Positions 1 to 36,661 of a stretch of DNA of 38,350 nucleotides are shown here, piece after piece (the stretch's first letter is position 1; the number at the start of each line of letters is the position of its first letter). The stretch lies in UHGV virus genome UHGV-0182861; one strand, written 5' to 3'. The translations under genes were made by a program, and so were the position numbers. The stretch comes from a virus. Below the pieces are notes generated by a model. The model worked only from the letters and a program-made list of their open reading frames with translations. It had not been told where the DNA came from and searched no databases.

Positions 1-235
1 GCTCTGAGCCCTCTCTCCCTAGCTTCCGCTCTTAAGACGGGGATCAAAGAGAGGTCAAACCCAAAAGAGATCGCGTGGATGCCCTGCCTGGGGTTGAAGC
101 GTTAAATCTAATCAGGCTAGTTTGTTAGTGGCGTGTCTGTCCGCAGCTGGCAAGCGAATGTAAAGACTGACTAAGCATGTAGTGCCGAGGATGTAGGAAT
201 TTCGGACGCGGGTTCAACTCCCGCCAGCTCCACCA
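1..235 (+). ncRNA. ssrA: tmRNA (ssrA), 3' portion; 5' end lies outside the window
   Basis: Sequence matches the recalled enterobacterial tmRNA 3' half, including the tag-reading-frame region and the tRNA-like end GGACGCGGGTTCAACTCCCGCCAGCTCCACCA ending near 235; followed by a hairpin terminator. Confidence 0.9.
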
Positions 236-237: not shown

Positions 238-244
238 TAAATCA

Positions 245-278
245 AGGGGCTACGTGAAAGCGTAGCCCCTTTTTCTTT
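245..278 (+). terminator. Rho-independent terminator downstream of ssrA
   Basis: Hairpin aggggctacg / cgtagcccct with a 6-nt loop, followed by a ttttcttt run. Confidence 0.6.
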
Positions 279-343: not shown

Positions 344-1117
344 TTACAACTTAAAGAGTTTTGCTTGCCCTGGATTAACAGCTTCGACGTAGTTTTTGAC
401 CCCTATTCTGTGCGGCTCATAATTGCTTGAATAGAAATCAATCAGGAAGTCACTCATTTTCTGAGATGTGACTTTCATAACTCCCTTACTCAAAGTTAAA
501 TTAAACACGCTAATCTTTGACGATGGTGCCTGAGTTTTACTCATGTTGGCTTGATAACCAGATTTACGCATTGCCACTAGTGCTTCGTCGTAAGCCGCTT
601 GTAATTGGGCCAAATCGTTTGACGAGATGATCACATCATCCATAAACACACTTAGCTTGAGATCATGATGTTTGTTCAATCGGCGTAGTAAGCTACCAAA
701 ATAACTTTTATCTAAGCAGAGGGTTGCAAGTATTGGAGATTGAACAAAACCAAAAGGGAGGACATGCTTATGTGGACTATGGGACAAGTTTCTTACAGTT
801 GAAAATGTTGAGATTTCCCGCGCTTGAGAATAGGTGAAGTAGCTCTTTAGATCACGGGTGATACGACTACGGCTCGTTGACTGAAAAAATTGTTTAATAT
901 CAACAACGGCAAAAAAATCACTTTTTAAGTGTAATCTGGCAGCTTTAAGATGCCCACCAGTTCTTAGATGGTAAAAATAGAGTGGCGGAATCCACTTGTT
1001 TCTGACAGCCTGAAGTATCTTCCCTCCGACTTTACGTGCCTCAACGCTTGGGACATAAACCCAAACCCCGGGCTTAATCTCAAATTTATCTTCCCACCTT
1101 TGAACTTCTATTGTCAT
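344..1117 (-). CDS. Reverse transcriptase, compact retron-like (257 aa)
   Basis: Translation shows RT motifs: FFAVVDIKQFFQS (motif 1/2 with catalytic D), LPFGFVQSPILATLCL (motif B'), SVFMDDVII (Y/FxDD box) and G-Y-Q-A-N-M-S-K-T (motif D/E-like). About 40% GC versus about 53% for phage core. Poor SD; start overlaps upstream ORF by 32 nt. Confidence 0.75.
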   Translation of the reverse strand: MTIEVQRWEDKFEIKPGVWVYVPSVEARKVGGKILQAVRNKWIPPLYFYHLRTGGHLKAARLHLKSDFFAVVDIKQFFQSTSRSRITRDLKSYFTYSQAREISTFSTVRNLSHSPHKHVLPFGFVQSPILATLCLDKSYFGSLLRRLNKHHDLKLSVFMDDVIISSNDLAQLQAAYDEALVAMRKSGYQANMSKTQAPSSKISVFNLTLSKGVMKVTSQKMSDFLIDFYSSNYEPHRIGVKNYVEAVNPGQAKLFKL

Positions 1118-1274
1118 GAGTTAAATTGTTGTAGTTGAAGGCCATGTTAAGAACGGCGTAAACCGCACCAACTAAGCCAACAAACGCGGTTGCGCATTTG
1201 AGCATAGCGGTGATCAGTTCAACACGCGCCTTAACTAAGCCAAGTTCGTTTGTATCCATAACTTGTTCCTCCAT
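1086..1274 (-). CDS. Small hydrophobic protein (62 aa), overlaps RT start
   Basis: ORF with SD (tcAGGTatct-ATG) and a single hydrophobic helix ATAFVGLVGAVYAVL. Could be spurious if the region is ncRNA. Confidence 0.4.
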   Translation of the reverse strand: MEEQVMDTNELGLVKARVELITAMLKCATAFVGLVGAVYAVLNMAFNYNNLTHDNRSSKVGR

Positions 1275-1500
1275 AGATACCTGACGTCTCTTAGCGCAAG
1301 CGCATGGCCCTAACTAAATAAAAAATAACAACCAGTTAGCCCAGAAAGCTTAACAAGTCGGCGTCCGATTACATGGCAATCAGGTAATCGGTCCGCAGTC
1401 GCAAAGCGACAAACTACATATCTACGGAGTGGGGATAAATCCCCGCTAACGTCAGGCATTGTTAATTTAACCTCAACTTATAGAAAAGTATAGTTTTAAA
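1275..1500 (-). ncRNA. Candidate structured leader / retron-like ncRNA upstream of the small ORF-RT pair
   Basis: About 225-nt non-coding stretch with an 8-bp inverted repeat (cctgacgt near 1280 and acgtcagg near 1449) flanking several hairpins (gtcgcAAAgcgac, ggggaTAAAtcccc, ccgattac..gtaatcgg). No experimental or covariance support. Confidence 0.2.
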
Positions 1501-3411: not shown

Positions 3412-6400
3412 GCGTCGTATCCCCCCTGATCGCTGTAGTTACTCCTGGCTTTTGCCTTCAGCCTGCGTTCACGTTCATCAAGCTGGCGGGCCACCTCCCG
3501 CGCAATATCCTGCGCACTTTGTCCTGGCTGCGTCTGAATGATGATCTGCGTCGGTGCCTCAATCCGTTGAACGGGCGGCACAGTGGCTGCACGACTCAAC
3601 ATCGCTTCGCCGCCTTTCGCGGGAAGTGCCAACGGATGCAACGGTGGAAGCTCTGCAGGCGCGGCAGCAACACCCATCATTCCGGCAACAACGGCAGCCA
3701 GTGCAGCTGTATTTCTCCGGCTGGTCACATTTGCCGGGCCGTTAACAATTTCCGGCCCGTTTTCACCGACGATGCCAAACTGCCCGCGCGGGATATAGCC
3801 GCCGCTGTCATACATCCCCGCAAAGCCATATCCCCATGACGGAAAACCACCCGATGGCATCATCACTTTACCGTCTGCATTCACCGTCGCAGGTTGCTGA
3901 CGCGTCACGCTTTCCGGCAGTTTCGCCTTTGCAGCCTCTTTACTGACAATGCCGAGTTTCTCCAGCAACCAGGAAACGCCAGATTTCAGGGAGTCCAGCG
4001 GATGCATGACCATATTCAGCCCTTCCGCCAGTGCCTCCCCGAATCTCCGCCCCATTGCCGCTGCACTCTGCAGTTCGGCAGAGGTCGACTTAACGGGCGT
4101 CAGCAGATCAGTAAACCAGCCCCACAGCGCCTGCACTTTGTCGCCAATCCACTGGAACACAGGCTTAAGCGGTTCGAACGCTGCACTGATGGGACCTGCC
4201 GCCGCTTTGAATCCTTCCACCACGCCACCGAGAAATGCGGTGATGGGTTGCCAGTATTTCCAGACAACCAGTGCCACACCCGCCAGTGCAGCAACCACAA
4301 GACCTATCGGACTGAGCAGAGCACCTAACAGACCAGATACGGCATACAGGGCAACGCGCAACATCGCCAGTGGACCAGATGCCAGTACTCGCAGCACCGT
4401 GCCTGTGGCAGCCAGCCCGCCGCGTAGTGCTGCCAGTGGATTCATAAACATCACAGCAACCGCACGTAAACCGGATAATCCAGACCGCAACAGTGCAACC
4501 GGCGCATCTGCTACAGTTTTCAGGACATTTCCCGTCAGTGATGCCGTGCGGTGCAAAGACGACAACGGCGCAGTAAGTAAACCCGCTGCGTTGCCCGATG
4601 AAGCAAGCCCGCGTCGCAGCAGTGCCAGTGGAGCGCCAGCCAGCCAGGACAACGCGCTGCTGGTTCGAGTTACTGCTGCCGTAACGGAAGGTAACGTTTT
4701 GATACCCAGCACAGAGAATCCCAGACGGATCACTGCCAGCGGCCCCAGCACTGCAGCCAGCGCCACCGCTAAGGTGCCGAGGCCTACGGTAACCGCAGCC
4801 ACAACAGCCGCTACTTTCATCAGTGTGCCTGTCAGTTCCGGGTTAGCTTCCACCCAGCGGCGCAACGCCCCCGTAATGCTTTTCACCGTGTACAGAATAT
4901 CCATCAGCGGCTGGCGCAGCGTTTCGCCCAGGCTGCTGAAGGTGTTCTGCGCTCCGGTTTTAACCAGCAACCACTGAGCAGAAAGTGAGTCCTTGTTGAT
5001 GTCGGATTCTTTCTGCATGGAACCGAGCGCATCATTGCCCGCTGTCAGTTTTAGCTGGCGCTGCAGTTCCGGCAGGTTGTTTGCCAGTTTCGCCGCGTCA
5101 TCACCAAACTCTTTACCAAACAACATGGTCATGGCAGACAGACGCTTGTCCTGCGGCAGTGCGTTCACCTTCTCCAGCACACGCTGGATAGTTCCCATCG
5201 CATCCTTCGTCATCTGCTTTTCAATCACTTCAGGATTGAGTTTCAGCAGATTCATCCCTTCAAAGAAACTCTTGCTTTGCATGGTGGCAATGGACAATTC
5301 ACGCACCATCGCGTTTGCTGCACTGGCTGCAACCTCCGGCGCAGCGCCCAGTGTCAGAAAGGTGGAACCCAGTGCCGCCGCTTTACGATAATCCAGACGG
5401 TCAGCCACACCGCCCAGACGTTGCATGACATCAATGATGTCCGCCCCTTTTGACATGGCGTTATCATCCAGATAGTTCAGCGCATCGCCGAGCTGTTCAA
5501 TATTACGGGTAGGTATTTTGTAGAGCTGGGCGATTTTCCCCAGACTTTCTGACAGTTCATCCGCTGGCAGCTCAAAGGCTATTGCCGCCTTTGCCGCCGT
5601 ACTGGCGAAGGCCAGCAGGTCACGTTTCTGGTCTTCCCAGCTGTCGTCAGGGTTTGCGACGTTCATACGCGCACCACCTTCAACCAGTGCAGCGAAGTCC
5701 ACCGCACCGTTTTCCATCGGCAACTGTTCGCTGGCAGCCTTGATGGCATCCTGCATTTCATAAAAACGTGCAGTGCGGTTGCCATTATCGTCACGCAGAC
5801 CATTGACCTGCTTTGCCACACCTTTCATGGCATCTTCCATGCTGGTATAGCTTTTTACTGCCGCCATCACTGGTGTCCCCATTGCCAGCCCTGCAGCCGT
5901 GGTGGTGGCTCCGGCTCCTGCAATACGATCACGCACCTCCAGCGAACGGGCATAACTGGCACGCGCCGCATTCATCCTGCGCTGAGCTTCCCCCAGTCGC
6001 TTCAGCCGCGCCTCCTGTTTTGACAATTCCTGGTTATAACGTGATGTTTCACGGGCTAAACGGGCAGTTGCTCCCGCATCATCTTTCGCAGAAATTCCCG
6101 CCCGATACAGTTCTGCACGCACAAGCGCCGTTTGCTTCTGCAAATATTTTTGTTGTTCTTCCAGGCGTTGGACTGCCAGCGTTTGCCGACCTAAAGCCAC
6201 AAGGTGCCGTTGTGATGGTTGTTCCATCGCTTCCAGCTCAGAACTAAGCAAATTTGCCTTCTGTCTGGCATAGTTCAGCCTGTCGCCTAACCTTTTGTTA
6301 TCGGCCTGCAGCTTGCGAAATTTTTCCAGGCTGTTACCCGCCTGATTGAGTTGCTTTAATGCGTCACGGGAGTTTCTGATTGCGCCAGCCAGCTCTTTCG

Positions 6401-22574: not shown

Positions 22575-23299
22575 TGCCCCCAATCCCAACTAACCTCATG
22601 ACTATCGCGGGACTTCCGGTGGATAGCTCTTTCTTTGCTTACCAGTATGAGTGGAACACTAGCCCAAAGAGTAGAAACCGTGTACTCACAAAAATGCGCC
22701 AGGCAGGCGCGAATTTCTTTTTTTCCTATGAAGCCCTGAACGATGCACTGCATACCGGGCGTAACCAGATTTTCCTCTGCTGCAGCACAGCATCTGCCCT
22801 GACAGTCAAAACCTATATGTCAGCCTTTATAGATCAGGCCGCAACCTGGACACACCTTGGGAAAATAAAATCAGGTAAAGCGCATCTGGAACTACCTAAC
22901 GGTGCGGTCATTTATTTTATCGGGCCGAAAAGTCTCGCCGCCGCGCTCCATGGAAACGTCTATGTGTCAGAGTATGCCTGGGCGGACTCCCCGAAAAATA
23001 TGATTGCGCTCGCCAAAAGCCTGTCCATGCACGCGCGCTATCACGCTACCTACTACACCACCCCAAGCCCCAGCCCGGAAGCATGGCGGGAATACAAGAA
23101 GCTGATTGCCCGCAACAGCACAACCAGCATGATTTTTACCGCTGATGACGCTGCAGCATCCGGGGCAACGCTCGCAACCGGAGCCGCGCTCTTTGATGAT
23201 GAATGGCTTAATGACATGAAAAAAGAGTTATCAGCAGAGGACTGGAAAATGCTGTTTATGTGCGAATGGCCCCAGACTGACAAGGAGCAGGCGGCATGA
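22571..23299 (+). CDS. Terminase ATPase-domain paralog (242 aa), inserted between P and Q
   Basis: Aligns to gpP residues about 145-400 (FAYQYEW/FNYQRHW, RQAGANFFFSYEALNDALHTGRNQIFL / RQIGATFYFAREALIDALLTGRNQIFL, TYYTTPS / TYFSTPS, LFMCEW / LLMCEF) but lacks the gpP N-terminal domain and the C-terminal nuclease; start overlaps P stop (TGATG), stop overlaps Q start (ATGA). Confidence 0.75.
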   Translation: MMPPIPTNLMTIAGLPVDSSFFAYQYEWNTSPKSRNRVLTKMRQAGANFFFSYEALNDALHTGRNQIFLCCSTASALTVKTYMSAFIDQAATWTHLGKIKSGKAHLELPNGAVIYFIGPKSLAAALHGNVYVSEYAWADSPKNMIALAKSLSMHARYHATYYTTPSPSPEAWREYKKLIARNSTTSMIFTADDAAASGATLATGAALFDDEWLNDMKKELSAEDWKMLFMCEWPQTDKEQAA

Positions 23300-24336
23300 G
23301 CAAACGTAAAAACAAGAATAACCGCGCAGCAGTAGATCACAACGCAAATTCAGGCGGTGCTGCGGCAGAGGCGTTCAGCTTTGGCGACCCGGTGCCGGTG
23401 TTAGACCGACGCGAATTGCTGGACTACGTGGAATGCGTGCAGATGGATCGCTGGTATGAACCGCCGGTGAGCTTTGACGGACTGGCGCGGACCTATCGCG
23501 CCGCCGTGCATCACAGCTCACCGATTGCCGTTAAGCGTGACATTCTCAGCAGTACCTATATCCCGCACCGCCTGCTCAGCCAGCAGGCTTTTGCCCGTTT
23601 CGTCCAGGATTATCTGGTGTTCGGTAACGCCTATCTGGAAAAGCGCACCAACCGGCTCGGCAGCGTTCTCTCGCTGGAGCCAGCACTGGCGAAGTACACA
23701 CGGCGCGGCGTGGATCTCGACACCTACTGGTTTGTGCAGTATGGCATGACCACGCAGCCCTATGAATTTACGCAGGGCAACATCTTTCATCTGCTGGAAC
23801 CGGATATTAATCAGGAGATTTACGGGCTGCCCGGCTATCTCTCCGCCATCCCGTCAACCCTGCTCAACGAGTCAGCAACGCTGTTTCGCCGGAAGTATTA
23901 CATCAACGGCAGCCACGCGGGTTTCATCATGTACATGACCGACGCAGCACAGAATCAGGAGGACGTGAACAATATCCGCCAGGCAATGAAAAGCGCCAAA
24001 GGGCCGGGCAACTTCCGCAACCTGTTTATGTATTCGCCCAACGGTAAAAAGGACGGCATCCAGATAATCCCGTTGTCGGAAGTTGCGGCAAAGGATGAAT
24101 TTCTGAACATCAAGAACGTGAGCCGTGATGACATGATGGCTGCTCACCGCGTGCCGCCGCAGATGATGGGCATCATTCCCAACAATACCGGCGGCTTTGG
24201 TGATGTGGAAAAGGCCAGCCGCGTCTTTGTCCGCAACGAGCTGATGCCGCTGCAGAAGCGACTGCAGGAGCTTAACGACTGGCTGGGCGAAGAAGTGATC
24301 CGCTTTGAGCCCTACACCTTAGATATTGAAAACTAA
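23296..24336 (+). CDS. Q: Portal protein gpQ
   Basis: 346-aa product aligns with recalled P2 gpQ (FSFGDPVPVLDRRELLDYVEC...ATLFRRKYY...VFVRNEL). Confidence 0.95.
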   Translation: MSKRKNKNNRAAVDHNANSGGAAAEAFSFGDPVPVLDRRELLDYVECVQMDRWYEPPVSFDGLARTYRAAVHHSSPIAVKRDILSSTYIPHRLLSQQAFARFVQDYLVFGNAYLEKRTNRLGSVLSLEPALAKYTRRGVDLDTYWFVQYGMTTQPYEFTQGNIFHLLEPDINQEIYGLPGYLSAIPSTLLNESATLFRRKYYINGSHAGFIMYMTDAAQNQEDVNNIRQAMKSAKGPGNFRNLFMYSPNGKKDGIQIIPLSEVAAKDEFLNIKNVSRDDMMAAHRVPPQMMGIIPNNTGGFGDVEKASRVFVRNELMPLQKRLQELNDWLGEEVIRFEPYTLDIEN

Positions 24337-24370: not shown

Positions 24371-25804
24371 TCATTCAATACTATCTAGACGACTAACATT
24401 CATTTTATTGAGAAAGTCTCTATTAAAACCGAAATGATACCAGTTACTAGTATTTCGCTGGGCCTCACCCTCTGTCAGCTTTTGAGCCAAAAGTTTACTG
24501 TCATCGATTCCGGTAATAACTGCAATACTCTTGAATCCTCTATGCTGTATTGCTCTTGTAAATAGAGGATATTTCTCATAGTGCCCGGAATACAACAACA
24601 TTTGCGGGTACCAAAAAATACCGGGATTAATGAAGGATATCATAAGAGCAACAAGATCAGCTTGTTTCAAATCATCGAAAGACACATCATCTCTAGTTGC
24701 ACTTTGCTTTACTAACTCAGCAACAGGGGAATACAGTCGATAGTTTTCAGGGGACAATTTACTTTGAAGGTAATCAGAGCTTAAATATAACTCACTGTAA
24801 TTAGCAAACTCCATTCCCGGACTGGTTATATGATCGGGTAGCAAATAAGATGTATGCAGTAATGTATGTACATGCTGGAAAGCTTCAATTTTTATTAAAG
24901 CCGCCAAAATATATAAAAACGTTTCATACGCAAAAATCTGATGGGGCAAAAACCATATTTCATTATATGAATTTACATTTTTCGGACGATTTCTAATCGC
25001 TAACATTACTTCCATAAACTGTAATAGTGCTTTGGAAAAGTCTTCGCCCTGCGTATCACCCTCAAGTAAAACCCAGTCTGTAATGGCATCCCTAACGGCA
25101 ATAAGCTCTTTATGAATTTGCAAAACTTCCGCTGCAAAATCTTCAGTAGTTGGGTTTGTTACGACTTGTAGTGAGATACAATAATTTCGGCACACCTCTA
25201 AAAATTGCCTTCTGCAATCCTTTAATGTCTGCTTTTGATTTAAGACAGCTGATTTTAAAGTTTGAAATTTTGCATGAATTTCATACGTCGGTTTTGACGT
25301 GTCTTGCTCTAAATAAACCGGAGGCTTACCTAATGGTGGCTTAGTAAATTCTGGTTTTCCATAAAGCAACCTGATTAAACGTTCCCAATTATCATTTTCT
25401 TTTTCTGGTGTTGAAAAATCAATATAGATTCTAGACTTCAGAAAGATTGGAGTATACGGCTCTCCATTATCTTTGTACTCAAATATTAATGGTATAAATT
25501 TGGACTGCGACACGGATGAATATATTTCCTGGGAAATTATCATCGACTCAACACCGACACCATCTTTTCTTAAATCGGCTTTTTCTGAGTATTTTTTATC
25601 ACAAATGACTAAAACATGCGTAACCGTTTCATCTTGAACCATTCTTTCCATGTAATAATTTTTATCATCCCCTTCTTTCAAGTCATAAATATCTATGACA
25701 GTTTCAACTCCATCTGCCGCCAATCGTTCAGCCATATCTTTGATATGTTGCTGATGAGTTTTACTTGACCAACTATAGGATATAAAAACTTTTGGCTGGA
25801 TCAT
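24371..25804 (-). CDS. TIR-domain protein with about 330-aa uncharacterised C-terminal domain (477 aa); candidate anti-phage effector
   Basis: N-terminus KVFISYSWSS...VETVIDIYDL...VLVICDKKY...GVGVESMIISQE follows the bacterial TIR pattern (FISYS strand, conserved Glu in GV-x-V-E). Strong SD AGGGAGG and own promoter. About 33% GC versus about 53% for phage core. Confidence 0.7.
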   Translation of the reverse strand: MIQPKVFISYSWSSKTHQQHIKDMAERLAADGVETVIDIYDLKEGDDKNYYMERMVQDETVTHVLVICDKKYSEKADLRKDGVGVESMIISQEIYSSVSQSKFIPLIFEYKDNGEPYTPIFLKSRIYIDFSTPEKENDNWERLIRLLYGKPEFTKPPLGKPPVYLEQDTSKPTYEIHAKFQTLKSAVLNQKQTLKDCRRQFLEVCRNYCISLQVVTNPTTEDFAAEVLQIHKELIAVRDAITDWVLLEGDTQGEDFSKALLQFMEVMLAIRNRPKNVNSYNEIWFLPHQIFAYETFLYILAALIKIEAFQHVHTLLHTSYLLPDHITSPGMEFANYSELYLSSDYLQSKLSPENYRLYSPVAELVKQSATRDDVSFDDLKQADLVALMISFINPGIFWYPQMLLYSGHYEKYPLFTRAIQHRGFKSIAVITGIDDSKLLAQKLTEGEAQRNTSNWYHFGFNRDFLNKMNVSRLDSIE

Positions 25805-26106: not shown

Positions 26107-26340
26107 TTAATGCAGCCAGCTGTCGTCTTCCCACACCTTCTGCATAATTTCCATTACCCGCTGCTTATCCTCATCAAGTTTTAAGCCGGTCAACTCGATA
26201 CCGTTGGCACTGCCTTTGCGAATGCGGATCGCCGTCTTGGGATACAGGGGGCGCAGATTGCGGTAAAGCTCGGATTCAAGGGCGTCCAGGGTAGACTGGC
26301 TAATCTTCTGCTCTTTATCGATCATTATTTCAATGCGCAT
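26107..26340 (-). CDS. DinI-family protein (77 aa)
   Basis: Trimmed to MRIEIMIDKEQ... with SD GAGGTGA; resembles recalled DinI (MRIEVTIAK...EILQETWE). Confidence 0.75.
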   Translation of the reverse strand: MRIEIMIDKEQKISQSTLDALESELYRNLRPLYPKTAIRIRKGSANGIELTGLKLDEDKQRVMEIMQKVWEDDSWLH

Positions 26341-26350
26341 AAAAGTCACC

Positions 26351-26539
26351 TCAGCTGATGACATCCATTGAGCGGTTGTATTCGTGAGTTCTGATTTTTG
26401 CCATGAGTTCATCTGTCAGTTCAGAAACCCACTGCAAAGCCAGCCCCTTCTCTTCATCACTACACTCACTAGCCGCTACAAGCTTAAGAAAAAAATCAAT
26501 GCGCTGGAGCTTCAAAGACTCCAAAAAATAGTCCTGCAT
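26351..26539 (-). CDS. Small protein upstream of DinI-like gene; possible Tum-like antirepressor N-terminal module (62 aa)
   Basis: Trimmed from the 96-aa track ORF because a LexA box and promoter lie inside its N-terminal extension; strong SD GGAGGAAAG before the internal ATG. Confidence 0.5.
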   Translation of the reverse strand: MQDYFLESLKLQRIDFFLKLVAASECSDEEKGLALQWVSELTDELMAKIRTHEYNRSMDVIS

Positions 26540-32542: not shown

Positions 32543-33556
32543 ATGACCATCAGAAAACAGCCGAACGGAAAGTGGTTATGTGAATGCTACCCAAACGGGC
32601 GAGATGGCAAACGCGTACGCAAACAATTTGCGACGAAAGGCGAAGCCATTGCGTTTGAGAATTTCACCATGGACGAGGTAAACAAGAAACCTTGGCTGGG
32701 AGAAAAGGAAGATCGGCGACACCTATCAGAATTAATTGAGCTGTGGTATTCCCTGTATGGTCAAACACTCGCAGACCCCAAGCGACTCATGGCGAAACTT
32801 GGAATTATCTGTAATGGTCTGGGCGATCCCATCGCTTCAGAGCTGACTGCCGGTGACTTTACGAAATACCGCGAAGCACGGCTAAAAGGTGAAGTGCGAA
32901 ATGAAGATGGCACGCTGATGTCGCCCGTTAAGCCCCGCACGGTAAACCTTGAACAGCGCAATCTATCATCTGTGTTCGGTACATTAAAAAAACTAGGACA
33001 CTGGTCAGCACCAAACCCGCTGGCAGGACTTCCGACCTTCAAAATTGCCGAAGGTGAGCTGGCTTTTCTTTCCACGGACGAAATCAAGCGCCTGTTGGCG
33101 GCATGTGCTGAATCTCAAAGCCCTAGCTTACTAATGATTGCAAAAATATGCCTGGCTACTGGCGCACGGTGGAGTGAAGCCGAAAATCTGCAGGGCCATC
33201 AAATATCGAAATACCGAATTACTTATACAAAAACAAAAGGCAAGAAAAACCGTACTGTGCCGATATCTCAGGATCTGTATGATGAACTCCCCAAAAACAG
33301 AGGAAAGTTATTCACGCCATGCAGAAAAGCCTTTGAGCGGGCAGTAAAGCGGGCCGGTATTGACCTACCGGAGGGCCAATGCACCCACGTGCTTCGCCAT
33401 ACATTCGCCAGTCACTTTATGATGAACGGCGGAAACATACTGGTACTGCGTGATATTTTGGGTCATGCCGATATAAAAATGACCATGATTTACGCCCACT
33501 TTTCGCCCGATCACCTTGAAGACGCGGTGACTAAAAATCCTCTTTATAATTTGTAG
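32543..33556 (+). CDS. int: Tyrosine integrase (P2/186 Int family)
   Basis: 337 aa with C-terminal catalytic motifs (R...HVLRHTFASHFMMNGG...LGHADIKMTMIYAHF) directly downstream of cI. Confidence 0.9.
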   Translation: MTIRKQPNGKWLCECYPNGRDGKRVRKQFATKGEAIAFENFTMDEVNKKPWLGEKEDRRHLSELIELWYSLYGQTLADPKRLMAKLGIICNGLGDPIASELTAGDFTKYREARLKGEVRNEDGTLMSPVKPRTVNLEQRNLSSVFGTLKKLGHWSAPNPLAGLPTFKIAEGELAFLSTDEIKRLLAACAESQSPSLLMIAKICLATGARWSEAENLQGHQISKYRITYTKTKGKKNRTVPISQDLYDELPKNRGKLFTPCRKAFERAVKRAGIDLPEGQCTHVLRHTFASHFMMNGGNILVLRDILGHADIKMTMIYAHFSPDHLEDAVTKNPLYNL

Positions 33557-33568
33557 TGGAGACCTATT

Positions 33569-35089
33569 GTGATTCAAAAATTAGATATTCAATCTGATGC
33601 GGTTGCAAAGTTAAGAATGGATGCTATTCGTTCAGAAATCCAAGGTTATTCCCCTGATTTATTTATCGAATTCTGTATGCAATATAACTTACAAAAATTT
33701 GAAGATAATATCCACATGTTACGACACATGCCTTGGATTGTTAATTTATGTCTAAAGTGGTCTGCGTCAGTAACTGGCAAGAATAAAAAATTCAAAATCC
33801 TCGATAAAAATCAAGCAATAAAACTCTTCCAAAAAACTTATGAAACCTTGAACATTATTCCTATCGGTCTTGAGAGGAAGAATGGCATGCATTTCTTCAT
33901 TAGAAATAATCTATACCAACAAGGAATCTACCAGAAAATTGACGCTCTAAACACAATTAGCAGACAAGTCTTTCTATTTTCAGAACTTGAAAAAAACCAT
34001 AAAATAAAGACAAGTTTTTTTACTATCACGAATGTATCTATCGAAGACTTTCTTAAGCTATCTTACATATTAATAACTCACATAACAGAAGAGCATCCCG
34101 TGAGAAAAATGAATGTAGATACATTTACTATATTATTTGACATCATTCCTAGAAATACCATTGAGAAATTTCTTGATGCAATATCAATAAATTACAATGA
34201 ACTATCTACATTTTGCAAATCAAAAACCTATGATAAACCTTTGCTTGAATACTACTCATCATCACCTTTTCTTGAAAAACCATTAATAAAAAAAGGTTCA
34301 GAGTATTTTCAGATACACACACAACTGACTTCAACAAGCATACAGACGTTCATATATGATCTTTTAAGAAGAACTGATGCCGAGAAGTTCATGGATAGCT
34401 TTGGAAATGTATTTGAAAATGCACTGGAATTAATACTAAAAGAAAGCGAAATTGATTTTCATAACGAAAAACACCTTAAAGAACGACTACCTAAAGATAA
34501 TAAAGTAGTTGATTATTTCATTCCACATACTGAGGCAAATATTTTCATTGATGCTAAAGGCGTTGAGATACACCAAAAAGGCATGGTAACATTACGCCCT
34601 GAGGATATTGCAGGAAAAATAAAGAAATCGGTATTAAAAGCAATCGAACAATCTCACGAAGTTAATCGAGAAATATACTCTAATGAGCGAATAATAGCTC
34701 CATTCAGGGCTAACTCATATATCATTTGCATTACATATAAAAACCTTTTCTTAGGCAATGGTAGTATCCTAGCTAATACTTATGCTAAAGATGAGATGAA
34801 TAAGATATATGACAAGTTTAAACATAACTATCATATCCCTACAGAGAATATTTTTTGTCTATCATTTGAAGAGTTTGAATATCTCATTGCATCATGCAAA
34901 AGGTTTAAAATTCCGCCTCATGAAGTCTTGCAATCTGCAGTTGAAAAGAACAAAAAACCATCAAGTGCTGCTTTCCTATTTTCCCACCATATAGAAGACT
35001 ATTTTGATAGAGTAGTCAATTCAGTCATAGTCAATGAGGCAGGCATTAAAATGGTAGATTCTATTATCAATAAATTAAAGCCTGAATAA
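33569..35089 (+). CDS. Orphan 506-aa protein, AT-rich; possible PD-(D/E)xK nuclease-like motif
   Basis: GTG start 12 nt after int stop with SD GGAG; about 30% GC; segment VVDYFIPHTEANIFIDAKGVE fits a D...(D/E)xK pattern by eye; no other recognised motif. Confidence 0.55.
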   Translation: MIQKLDIQSDAVAKLRMDAIRSEIQGYSPDLFIEFCMQYNLQKFEDNIHMLRHMPWIVNLCLKWSASVTGKNKKFKILDKNQAIKLFQKTYETLNIIPIGLERKNGMHFFIRNNLYQQGIYQKIDALNTISRQVFLFSELEKNHKIKTSFFTITNVSIEDFLKLSYILITHITEEHPVRKMNVDTFTILFDIIPRNTIEKFLDAISINYNELSTFCKSKTYDKPLLEYYSSSPFLEKPLIKKGSEYFQIHTQLTSTSIQTFIYDLLRRTDAEKFMDSFGNVFENALELILKESEIDFHNEKHLKERLPKDNKVVDYFIPHTEANIFIDAKGVEIHQKGMVTLRPEDIAGKIKKSVLKAIEQSHEVNREIYSNERIIAPFRANSYIICITYKNLFLGNGSILANTYAKDEMNKIYDKFKHNYHIPTENIFCLSFEEFEYLIASCKRFKIPPHEVLQSAVEKNKKPSSAAFLFSHHIEDYFDRVVNSVIVNEAGIKMVDSIINKLKPE

Positions 35090-35336: not shown

Positions 35337-35431
35337 GTCTATTGTCGTCTAGTGAGAATTGCTGAGAATCACGAGTTATGGCACCCTGAATGGGACCCAA
35401 GACAAAGGGTCCAAAAATCGAGGGTCCCAAA

Positions 35432-36661
35432 ATGGCAAAGATCGCGAAGAAACTCACCGACACAGAAATCAAAAACACCAAGCCAGCAGACAAAGAAGTC
35501 AACTTGTTTGACGGGGATGGCTTGATTCTACGAATCTCTCCCCTCTCAACAGGTGGGAAAAAAAATTGGTATTTCAGGTATTCAGTGCCAGTGAGCAAGA
35601 AAAGAACCAAGATGAGCCTTGGGACCTACCCTCACCTTACCCTGGCAAGAGCAAGAGCCTTGCGTGATGAATACCTCTCCTTGCTTGCGAATGGCACGGA
35701 CCCTCAAGTCCATAACAACGATAAAGCTAATGCATTAAAGAATGCCACAGAACACATATTACAAGCCGTGGCGAGAAAATGGTTGGATGAGAAGGTAAAG
35801 ACCTCTGGCATCTCACAAGACCATGCAGAAGACATCTGGCGGAGCCTTGAACGAAATATTTTCCCCGGTCTGGGTAATGTGCCAATCAATGAGATCCGTC
35901 CCAAGCTCTTAAAGCAGCATCTTGATCCAATTGAACAACGAGGAGTACTGGAAACTTTGCGGCGGCTAATTTCCAGGTTGAATGAAATCTTCCGTTGGGC
36001 GGCTACAGAAGAGCTGATTGAATTTAACCCCGCAGATAATCTAGGCCAACGTTTCAGTAGGCCTAAAAAACAGAATATGCCTGCCTTACCCCCCTCTGAA
36101 CTCCCTCGTTTTCTGGCAGCACTGAACAATGCTTCTGTCCGTTTAGAAACAAGACTATTGATTGAATGGCAACTTCTCACATGGGTTCGCCCTGGTGAAG
36201 CAGTCCGCGCAAGATGGTCTGATATAGATATGGATAACAGCATGTGGAACATCCCGGCTGAATTTATGAAGATGAAAAAACCTCATAAGGTCCCATTAAG
36301 CAAAGAATCTCTTCGGATACTCAAGTCTATGGAATCAATCAGTGGGCACCGAGAGTGGGTATTTCCCAGCATAAAGGCTCCCTTAAATCATATGCATGAA
36401 CAAACAGCCAATGCAGCAATTATCCGTATGGGCTTTGGAGGTGAACTTGTTGCCCACGGAATGCGATCTATTGCAAGAACGGCAGCGGAAGAGTCAGGTA
36501 AGTTCAGGACAGATGCCCTTGAAGCGGCCCTTGCCCACTCAAAAAAAGACGAAATTATCGCTGCATATAATCGTGCGGAATATATTACCGAACGAGTAGC
36601 TCTCATGCAGTGGTGGGGAGATTATGTCCTGGCACAACAGCTTAAAATTTTTGCTGCTTAA
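35432..36661 (+). CDS. Tyrosine integrase, P4/CP4-57 IntA type
   Basis: Trimmed to MAKIAKKLTDTEIKNTKPADKEVNLFDGDGLILRI (typical P4-family N-terminus) with SD GAGGG; C-terminal catalytic region HGMRSIARTAA...LAHS...AYNRAEY. Confidence 0.85.
   Translation: MAKIAKKLTDTEIKNTKPADKEVNLFDGDGLILRISPLSTGGKKNWYFRYSVPVSKKRTKMSLGTYPHLTLARARALRDEYLSLLANGTDPQVHNNDKANALKNATEHILQAVARKWLDEKVKTSGISQDHAEDIWRSLERNIFPGLGNVPINEIRPKLLKQHLDPIEQRGVLETLRRLISRLNEIFRWAATEELIEFNPADNLGQRFSRPKKQNMPALPPSELPRFLAALNNASVRLETRLLIEWQLLTWVRPGEAVRARWSDIDMDNSMWNIPAEFMKMKKPHKVPLSKESLRILKSMESISGHREWVFPSIKAPLNHMHEQTANAAIIRMGFGGELVAHGMRSIARTAAEESGKFRTDALEAALAHSKKDEIIAAYNRAEYITERVALMQWWGDYVLAQQLKIFAA

Follow-up and report, generated by a model that had tools for sequence, protein, structure and literature searches.

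A conserved retron-like module of leader RNA, small hydrophobic protein and compact reverse transcriptase in a P2-like prophage

Type VI retrons, of which Retron-Vpa2, Retron-Eco12 and Retron-Sen3 are examples, are described as loci in which a noncoding RNA (ncRNA), a small protein (SP), a helix-turn-helix (HTH) protein and a reverse transcriptase (RT) follow one another. In Retron-Vpa2, a "hybrid RNA" carries the msr-msd together with a toxic SP that is translationally repressed, and the multicopy single-stranded DNA (msDNA), which is needed for SP derepression, accumulates only on phage triggers (bioRxiv 10.1101/2025.10.22.683967). For the type, the SP ribosome-binding site is sequestered in the ncRNA, and the SP is the toxin (bioRxiv 10.1101/2025.10.22.683967, 10.64898/2026.04.27.721009). 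Here we describe a module of the UHGV virus genome UHGV-0182861 (38,350 nt, the whole of which we call the window) that is related to the Type VI retrons and lies outside them. On the minus strand it consists of a structured leader RNA, a gene for a small hydrophobic protein that we also name SP, and a gene for a 257-aa RT. Across the relatives compared, the two genes and the RNA are jointly conserved, and two helices of the RNA covary. An initial annotation of this DNA had suggested a possible minimal retron-like or RT-based abortive-infection system with a small membrane effector; its structural elements are borne out here, and its function is something that we infer. Our reading, which we hold to be rather probable, is that ncRNA, SP and RT make up a self-contained, minimal retron-type abortive-infection cargo. 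The sources checked give the family no name; of the systems described so far, the Type VI retrons, which defend against phage, stand closest to it. A literature search found no paper on an SP-RT family without an HTH; the Retron-Eco12 sequence and the Mestre tables stood outside this comparison, and earlier cataloguing is possible.

The module is like the Type VI retrons in the order of its parts (ncRNA, small hydrophobic protein and RT on one transcript), in the sequestering of the SP ribosome-binding site by the retron RNA as described for Sen3 and Vpa2, in an RT that is small by retron standards (279 positions in the RT_VI profile) with RT_VI as its top PADLOC model, and in its occurrence in P2-like phages, where KS5 gp44/gp45 is a Type VI case. 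It differs from them in several ways. A Cro/C1-type HTH gene (cluster 2_1) stands beside the RT gene in Type VI, whereas none does in our loci and the SP gene overlaps the RT gene directly. The a2 repeat there encloses the SP gene and here lies upstream of it. The main Type VI SP clusters are three-helix proteins of 75-79 aa, whereas the SP here has 40-60 aa and an N-Y motif. Retron-Eco12 is set apart from the module solely by the published description of its HTH gene. Because the RT falls outside the Type VI clade and the HTH gene is missing, we conclude that the module is not a Type VI retron.

Other described systems are further away. With Type IV retrons (Retron-Eco6/Ec48) the module shares a broad RT clade (clade 3, Mestre et al. 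2020) and a small, non-enzymatic effector of presumed membrane type; the Type IV effector is a two-transmembrane (2TM) protein downstream of the RT or overlapping it, whereas the one-helix protein here is upstream. No Type IV model is among the best 25 of the 47 PADLOC families matched by the window RT. We found no Type IV-like downstream effector either: the RT gene in the window is followed by the att site, and the loci have no conserved downstream gene. Canonical retrons (Ec86/Eco1, Eco8) have in common with the module the a1/a2 repeats, a G after a1, msr hairpins, an msd and an RT gene downstream on the same strand, and the RTs of Eco8, Kva2 and Ec86 are the best solved relatives of the RT. 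The RT here is shorter than theirs by 50-120 residues and has VFN for VTG; a protein gene lies between msd and RT, and the msr pairs with the Shine-Dalgarno (SD) sequence of that gene. AbiP2 (Orf570) resembles the module as an RT that is accessory cargo of P2-like coliphages. It is a 570-aa protein of the UG/Abi class at a Z/fun-type hotspot, whereas here a retron-like RT of 257 aa comes with an ncRNA at the ogr-att end.

Two covarying helices in the leader RNA

The comparative set holds relatives from 145 loci, with 80 genomic and 55 viral loci fetched, the genomic ones coming from Enterobacterales, Vibrionales, Pseudomonas, Burkholderiales, Rhizobiales and Sphingomonadales. In this family, one plan runs through the 250 nt that precede the SP gene. 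It begins with a1, followed by N-T-A-G-G/C (in which A-G is invariant), a hairpin and a pyrimidine-rich segment, and continues with a hairpin GUCAC-NNN-GUGAU, a variable hairpin region, the boxes TTGGTT and CATGCGC..GCGCTAGG, a2, the SD sequence and ATG. In the window, the putative retron-type ncRNA (msr-msd) together with the masked SP ribosome-binding site occupies 1268..1463 on the minus strand, where the covariance model R1, built from 29 leaders, scores 62.5 bits (E 1.7e-11). Covariance modelling had been suggested in the initial annotation, which described the leader as hairpin-rich. The description agrees with the folding energy, which relative to shuffled sequence has z = -2.86 over 261 nt and z = -4.05 over a core of 183 nt. 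The model finds one match per locus, on the coding strand and just upstream of the SP gene, in 114 of 147 sources, many of them outside the training set; it has no other match in 1.13 Mb or elsewhere in the window, and none at the locus of phage KS5, a bona fide Type VI case. No Rfam family matches the leader.

The first of the two helices joins a1 to a2. An 8-bp inverted repeat, CCTGACGT (1456..1449) and ACGTCAGG (1285..1278), had been likened to the a1/a2 repeats that flank the msr-msd of retrons. The repeat is present and extends to nine pairs (1457..1449 with 1287..1279), formed by the a1 arm GCCTGACGT (1449..1457, minus strand) and the a2 arm ACGTCAGGT (1279..1287, minus strand). Taken by itself it does not rise above chance, as 30 comparable repeats occur in 481 nt, and it is the comparative data that establish it. 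RNAalifold, run on a structure-blind MAFFT alignment of 35 leaders, recovers the a1:a2 stem as well as a conserved hairpin. Compensatory changes are found in six of the seven a1:a2 pairs, with double changes in 2 to 16 sequences, and 97.1% of the cells of the stem (7-9 bp) pair. The covariation score of 0.44 compares with 0.226 for shuffled columns, where none of 500 shuffles scored as high, and with 0.03-0.11 for slid partners. Cognate duplexes are more stable than non-cognate ones (-15.5 vs -9.7 kcal/mol, p<=5e-5). Repeats of the a1/a2 kind thus flank the RNA, and the result holds against both controls.

Directly 3' of a1, the A and the G of TAG(C/G) are invariant in the 35 leaders. At the level of sequence this gives the RNA a conserved G immediately after a1, at 1446 (minus strand) in the window, a candidate for the guanosine whose 2'-OH primes reverse transcription (branching). 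Its position matches that of the branching G of canonical retrons. Hairpin 1 of the msr (GGGGA-UUUA-UCCCC; 1431..1444, minus strand) appears in both the minimum free energy (MFE) and the centroid folds, and relatives have a hairpin of variable sequence in the same place. Hairpin 2 (GUCGC-UUU-GCGAC in the window, GUCAC-NNN-GUGAU in most relatives; 1398..1410, minus strand) is the conserved hairpin found by RNAalifold: columns 170-174 pair with columns 180-184 in 97% of cases, and an A-U pair changes to G-C in four sequences, that of the window included. The presumed msd template follows (1288..1397, minus strand), a role suggested by its position adjacent to a2. Its middle consists of variable hairpins and its 3' boxes are near-invariant; in the window these read TTAGTT (1317..1312) and CCATGCGCTTGCGCTAAGAG (1307..1288).

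Transcription would begin at a1, as in retrons, since 16 of 35 relatives show TTGnnn, a spacer of 16-18 nt and a TAnnnT whose end is 6-7 nt ahead of a1, in many cases together with the TG of an extended -10. In the window, the candidate -10 box read from these relatives is TAAATT (1464..1469, minus strand), which ends 6 nt upstream of a1. A simple promoter scan of the window leader reported no promoter on the minus strand.

The second helix masks, as far as covariation tells, the SP ribosome-binding site. A segment of the msr, CUCCGUAGAU (1420..1429, minus strand), which lies just after hairpin 1 and directly before hairpin 2, is complementary to 1269..1278 and would act as an anti-SD. Its partner is the SP ribosome-binding region AUCUAUGGAGG (1268..1278, minus strand), with the SD sequence GGAGG at 1272..1268. 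The register of the pairing differs among sequences, and for this reason we compared duplex energies of cognate and non-cognate pairs: over 35 loci the cognate mean is -13.4 kcal/mol and the non-cognate mean -8.9 kcal/mol (permutation p<=5e-5). The order along the RNA is a1, anti-SD, a2, SD, so that the two helices cross, and they therefore form either a pseudoknot or two alternative states. In the 261-nt leader, the anti-SD helix forms in the MFE fold and a1:a2 in the centroid. A possible second copy of the anti-SD within the msd, which would provide an "SD mimic" cDNA competitor comparable to the 7-nt repeats of Vpa2, was rejected after cognate tests gave p = 0.07 and 0.08.

The leader shows three further features. 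The box CAUGCGC-N2-6-GCGCU (1307-1288, minus strand) is near-invariant at the 3' end of the presumed template. RNAalifold draws it as a 4-bp hairpin that never varies and whose loop in the window has just 2 nt, and it may instead be a recognition or initiation element for the RT. A UAGG motif occurs as a direct repeat (UAGC at 1448-1445 and UAAG at 1293-1290 in the window; columns 103-106 and 319-323 of alignment A2), one copy immediately 3' of a1, holding the candidate priming G, and the other directly 5' of a2, where the template starts. This repeat recalls the conserved 7-nt direct repeats of Type VI hybrid RNAs. Finally, several E. coli genomes (e.g. WP4-S18-ESBL-08, L002 6263-7375) carry IS421 in the leader near window position 1443, around hairpin 1. 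Inserted just downstream of the candidate priming G, IS421 separates the retron RNA from its promoter and leaves SP and RT intact, which makes these genomes natural ncRNA knock-outs. E. coli matches stop at 1443 because of this insertion, and a module boundary considered at that position was discarded.

The small protein and its overlap with the RT gene

The SP gene had been described as an open reading frame (ORF) of 62 aa that overlaps the start of the RT gene by 32 nt. An ORF of this length is found mechanically at 1086..1274 (minus strand), and the 32-nt overlap stands. The length is likely to be 57 aa, from an ATG at 1259 (1086..1259, minus strand; MDTNELGLVKARVELITAMLKCATAFVGLVGAVYAVLNMAFNY...), since GGAGG (1272..1268) lies 8 nt upstream of it, PGAP calls the 57-aa form and the relatives align there. 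The alternative ATG at 1274 falls within the SD region of SP. At least 75 of 81 loci have an SP ORF of some 40-60 aa whose end falls near the RT start, which makes SP a linked accessory gene.

The N-terminus of these proteins is basic, its first 12 residues having a mean net charge of +2.3; a hydrophobic stretch some 25-30 residues long follows, and the C-terminus bears a motif such as L-L-N-M-A-F-N-Y. The L-x3-F-x-Y spacing seen here is similar to that of residues I39, F43 and F45 in Vpa2. In an alignment of 45 SP the Y is invariant and the N nearly so, and the pattern spans Enterobacterales to Rhizobiales. The best 19-residue Kyte-Doolittle window reaches 1.94 in the SP of our window and 1.79 on average in the family, with 33 of the 45 proteins attaining 1.6; with maxima this high across the family, a membrane helix is plausible. 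Outside the overlap with the RT gene, dN/dS is 0.17-0.44 relative to relatives at about 80% RT identity, values that place SP under purifying selection. A small hydrophobic ORF with one helix, as first described, is therefore a conserved hydrophobic protein on which selection acts. A profile search finds 102 homologous clusters, all unnamed, and in each of the three homologue contexts looked up an RVT_1 gene of 244-256 aa overlaps the SP gene. SP matches no entry of Pfam, PADLOC or NCBIfam. Its length and motif differ from those of the described Type VI accessory clusters (2075, 2760, 3272, 3897), compared by description only. We presume that SP is the effector: it is probably inserted in the membrane and a likely toxin, a view drawn from its hydropathy and from the parallel with the SP of Type VI and the 2TM effectors of Type IV.

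In each of the 60 loci measured, the RT gene begins within the SP ORF, and the two share 4-116 nt. The absence of an SD sequence before the RT gene, reported earlier for the window, holds there and across the family, where an SD-like motif precedes RT in 6 of 60 loci and SP in 55 of 60. The overlap had been attributed to coupling or to a frameshifted fusion. Coupling fits better: with no SD of its own and a start inside the end of the SP gene, the RT is probably made by translational coupling, and one masked initiation site would set the level of both proteins. The varying overlaps, and the start codon that each RT keeps at its conserved N-terminus, speak against a fusion, which we reject.

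An RT that always starts inside an SP ORF and has no SD sequence, next to an SP without a recognisable domain, is also what one would see if SP were a leader peptide or upstream ORF that delivers ribosomes to the RT gene, with any effector being a host factor or the complementary DNA (cDNA). A pure coupling ORF, however, needs neither an amino-acid pattern conserved from Enterobacterales to Rhizobiales nor a dN/dS of 0.17-0.44, and we find this very improbable.

The same overlap without an RT SD resembles the stoichiometric coupling of toxin-antitoxin pairs. It thereby favours the main rival to our reading, a retron toxin-antitoxin of canonical logic, in which a basal amount of SP is held inactive by the RT-msDNA and is freed when phage damages, modifies or removes the msDNA, the masking of the SD merely tuning expression. 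Most characterised retrons work in this way, and no HTH antitoxin is found here, whereas the HTH is the antitoxin in Retron-Sen3. The covarying anti-SD:SD helix, on the other hand, speaks for translation being truly repressed, and Type VI, the closest of the described systems, uses no msDNA antitoxin. On balance we consider the RT-msDNA an unlikely antitoxin for SP.

A natively small, retron-like RT

The RT gene (344..1117, minus strand) encodes a compact protein of 257 aa with a catalytic FMDD. Its identity as an RT with a retron-like core was read correctly in the initial annotation: all of the motifs quoted there (DIKQFF, LPFGFVQSP, FMDD and NMSKT) are found, and Pfam RVT_1 matches at 2e-21. 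The statement that it is shorter than any known retron RT is roughly right, given that solved retron RTs have 310-381 aa and the PADLOC RT_VI and RT_X profiles 279 and 272 positions. Most members of the family carry YMDD or YVDD where the window RT has FMDD. FADD occurs in active RTs, and for that reason FMDD in place of YxDD appears compatible with activity.

The small size is a trait of the family, whose RTs have 244-270 aa. A word-indexed search retrieved 72 RT relatives. A profile search gives 584 RT clusters at 90% identity, and among the matches listed nearly all have 249-270 aa and are named merely "reverse transcriptase domain-containing protein". An exhaustive phmmer search over 1.84 billion representatives has 519 matches at E<=1e-3 and 158 at <=1e-30; among those listed, the lengths are about 245-270 aa save for evident fragments and a few longer gene calls. 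With matches so few and so uniformly short, the RT is natively small by this evidence and its family well separated from other RTs. A tblastn search of the RT against phage records retrieved near-identical Klebsiella prophages only, and not the Type VI RT of KS5.

Among described RTs, those of retrons are closest. Of the 47 PADLOC families matched by the window RT, RT_VI comes first with 63 bits, followed by a Cas-associated RT (59) and RT_I-B (54). Over 18 members of the family the best E-values are 1.9e-24 for RT_VI and 3.7e-22 for RT_I-B, a margin that is almost nil for this family, and the RT does not fall in the Type VI subclade. The positive control, gp44 of Burkholderia phage KS5, reaches 260 bits on RT_VI with a margin of 145 bits, and the adjacent gp45 has 117 bits on HTH_VI. 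The RT is 19-24% identical to KS5 gp44; in an hhalign comparison of the family with gp44 (96.7% probability, 19% identity over 237 columns), gp44 has about 47 extra residues at the N-terminus and about 49 at the C-terminus. The UG/Abi/DRT models are weaker than the retron models (UG33 33 bits and Drt3a 17.6 bits for the window RT; the best UG17 E-value in the family, among the PADLOC matches listed, is 1.2e-11), and 257 aa leave no room for a C-terminal alpha-repeat extension, which places the RT outside this class. Against sequences of the PDB, the family profile finds Eco8 first (3.7e-13), then Kva2, Ec86, Ec78, Ec67 and Ec83, with group II intron and other RTs appearing only at 1e-5 or worse.

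RT_VI as best PADLOC model could mean that the locus is a decayed, non-functional Type VI retron that has lost its HTH and part of its RT, all the more as about 22% of the catalogued Type VI entries have no annotated HTH. This we find hardly credible, considering that hundreds of Proteobacteria clusters repeat this architecture and RT length with intact ORFs and a covarying RNA, that a true Type VI RT scores 260 bits and this one 63, and that a2 lies upstream of SP instead of downstream. In the flanks of 114 loci, no gene family is common to more than 13, which leaves no conserved third gene, and no HTH gene is conserved among these flanking families.

Some relatives have settings of their own. 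A variant with about 80% identity, in SP as well, is found in E. coli P2-like prophages at the D-ogr end and at a different att site (L145-L148, module 3797-4913), adjoining ybjM and a glutaredoxin gene. The variant is recorded from many contigs, its SP sequence occurs in 640 blocks of a contig index, and it may be commoner in E. coli than the copy at ssrA. The RT gene of L148 is called at 185 aa and is possibly truncated. In a metagenomic relative (L142 462-2822; L143) a TIR_2 protein of 464 aa comes after the SP-RT pair, suggesting a defence-island context for some members.

Prophage setting, proposed working and significance

At the start of the window (1-235), a tmRNA match of 148 bits marks the 3' part of ssrA, after which comes a P2-like prophage whose minus-strand genes run in the order tape measure, gpU, gpD (1829-2929) and ogr (1521-1739). 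The ogr product (minus strand) matches Ogr_Delta at 1.5e-21. The module sits between ogr and the ssrA att site, and no gene other than RT and SP lies between the two. A terminator-like hairpin predicted in both directions (244..271, both strands), found by a terminator scan between the end of ssrA, where the tmRNA match stops at 235, and the RT stop codon, marks the boundary of the module. The D-ogr-module arrangement is the same in 14 viral and 2 genomic loci. Klebsiella phage Kp4845-2 shares positions 236-1840 at 99.8% identity, and 21 complete E. coli genomes have them at ssrA with an identity of 99.1-99.4%. Other sister phages, also P2-like and from Klebsiella, match only the ogr/D part and are without the module, for which reason the 1.25 kb between ogr and att are taken as optional cargo. 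This fits the earlier description of an AT-rich cargo between the att core and ogr, as does the GC content, which is 0.39-0.46 for the module and 0.55-0.60 for the genes of the phage.

The prophage carries a second defence cargo, a 477-aa bSEFIR protein encoded at 24371-25804 (minus strand; PADLOC bSEFIR 343 bits, Pfam SEFIR and TIR_2 matches). Its gene belongs to another AT-rich island, of GC 0.38-0.42, and adjoins an ORF of 346 aa (23296-24336, plus strand); a DinI-like protein is encoded beside the island at 26107-26412 (minus strand; Pfam DinI 2.5e-24). The most AT-rich part of the window (GC about 0.31) holds a 506-aa ORF (33569-35089, plus strand) without Pfam or PADLOC match, directly after the prophage integrase gene (32543-33556) and ahead of a second integrase gene (35390-36661). 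It may be orphan cargo at the other end of the prophage, or the start of a tandem element at ssrA.

For the module itself we propose the following working. A single transcript would start at or near a1, and its first 180 nt or so at the 5' end would fold as a retron msr-msd RNA. The a1:a2 stem would set the invariant G1446 beside the 3' end of the msd template, and the 257-aa RT would prime from this G and copy the msd into msDNA. The same RNA would run on into the SP gene, its SD sequence paired to the msr segment, and coupled translation of the RT would put both proteins under the control of one masked initiation site. Phage infection may then alter the msDNA level or the RNA conformation, e.g. 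through recombination proteins or RecBCD inhibition, upon which SP would be unmasked or released and stop the infected cell, a course proposed by analogy with Retron-Vpa2 and Retron-Sen3. Priming from G1446, msDNA synthesis, toxicity of SP at the membrane, abortive infection and its triggering are steps that we infer, the triggering by analogy with Type VI. More tentatively, as a proposal that we take seriously without favouring it, the family may be a previously unnamed retron type, in effect the fourteenth, in which the msr RNA is a cis riboregulator of a coupled toxin-RT operon, the a1:a2/anti-SD:SD pseudoknot or switch ties reverse transcription to toxin release, and no protein antitoxin takes part.

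Several points weigh against a minimal retron. The msDNA, the toxicity of SP and the defence against phage are all read from sequence. The two covarying helices cross, so that the active conformation may be a pseudoknot or a switch. If the coupling between SP and RT is strict, the supply of RT while SP is repressed goes unexplained. The -35 box is weak in the window copy, and the covariance model, trained on gamma- and betaproteobacterial leaders, misses divergent alphaproteobacterial ones. All curated retron RT models score far below the level of their members (63 vs 260 bits on RT_VI), and the best NCBIfam model, retron_St85_RT, reaches 49.5 bits for a cut-off of 235. A single-sequence AlphaFold2 model was unusable (pLDDT 32). 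The motifs NAxxH and VTG define retron RTs; in this family the first aligns with (A)AxxH, with H56, A59 and H63 conserved, and the second is replaced by an invariant VFN (F205, N206). The altered motifs and low scores, together with the fact that no msDNA could be detected at baseline in Type VI retrons, would suit an RT that is not of a retron in the strict sense and makes an unbranched cDNA from the leader in the manner of DRT2/DRT9, the a1/a2 stem merely scaffolding the template. UG33 (33 bits) and Drt3a (17.6 bits) nevertheless stay below the retron models, a1/a2 with an invariant G 3' of a1 is the priming geometry of retrons, and the top solved relatives are all retron RTs, and we regard the unbranched cDNA as improbable.

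The family is common, with hundreds of clusters across Proteobacteria, including P2-like prophages of E. coli and Klebsiella, and it would add to the catalogues of defence systems genes that are now labelled "reverse transcriptase domain-containing protein" and "hypothetical protein". If confirmed, the retron-type module would be the most compact complete retron known, fitting one RNA, a peptide of some 50 residues and an RT of some 255 into about 1.2 kb, and it would mean that the RNA-level control of a small toxin seen in Type VI works without an HTH partner. How cDNA synthesis switches toxin translation would become a testable question, as a single covarying helix can be mutated and restored. 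For retron-based genome editing, a retron RT this small whose template RNA is defined would also be of practical interest.

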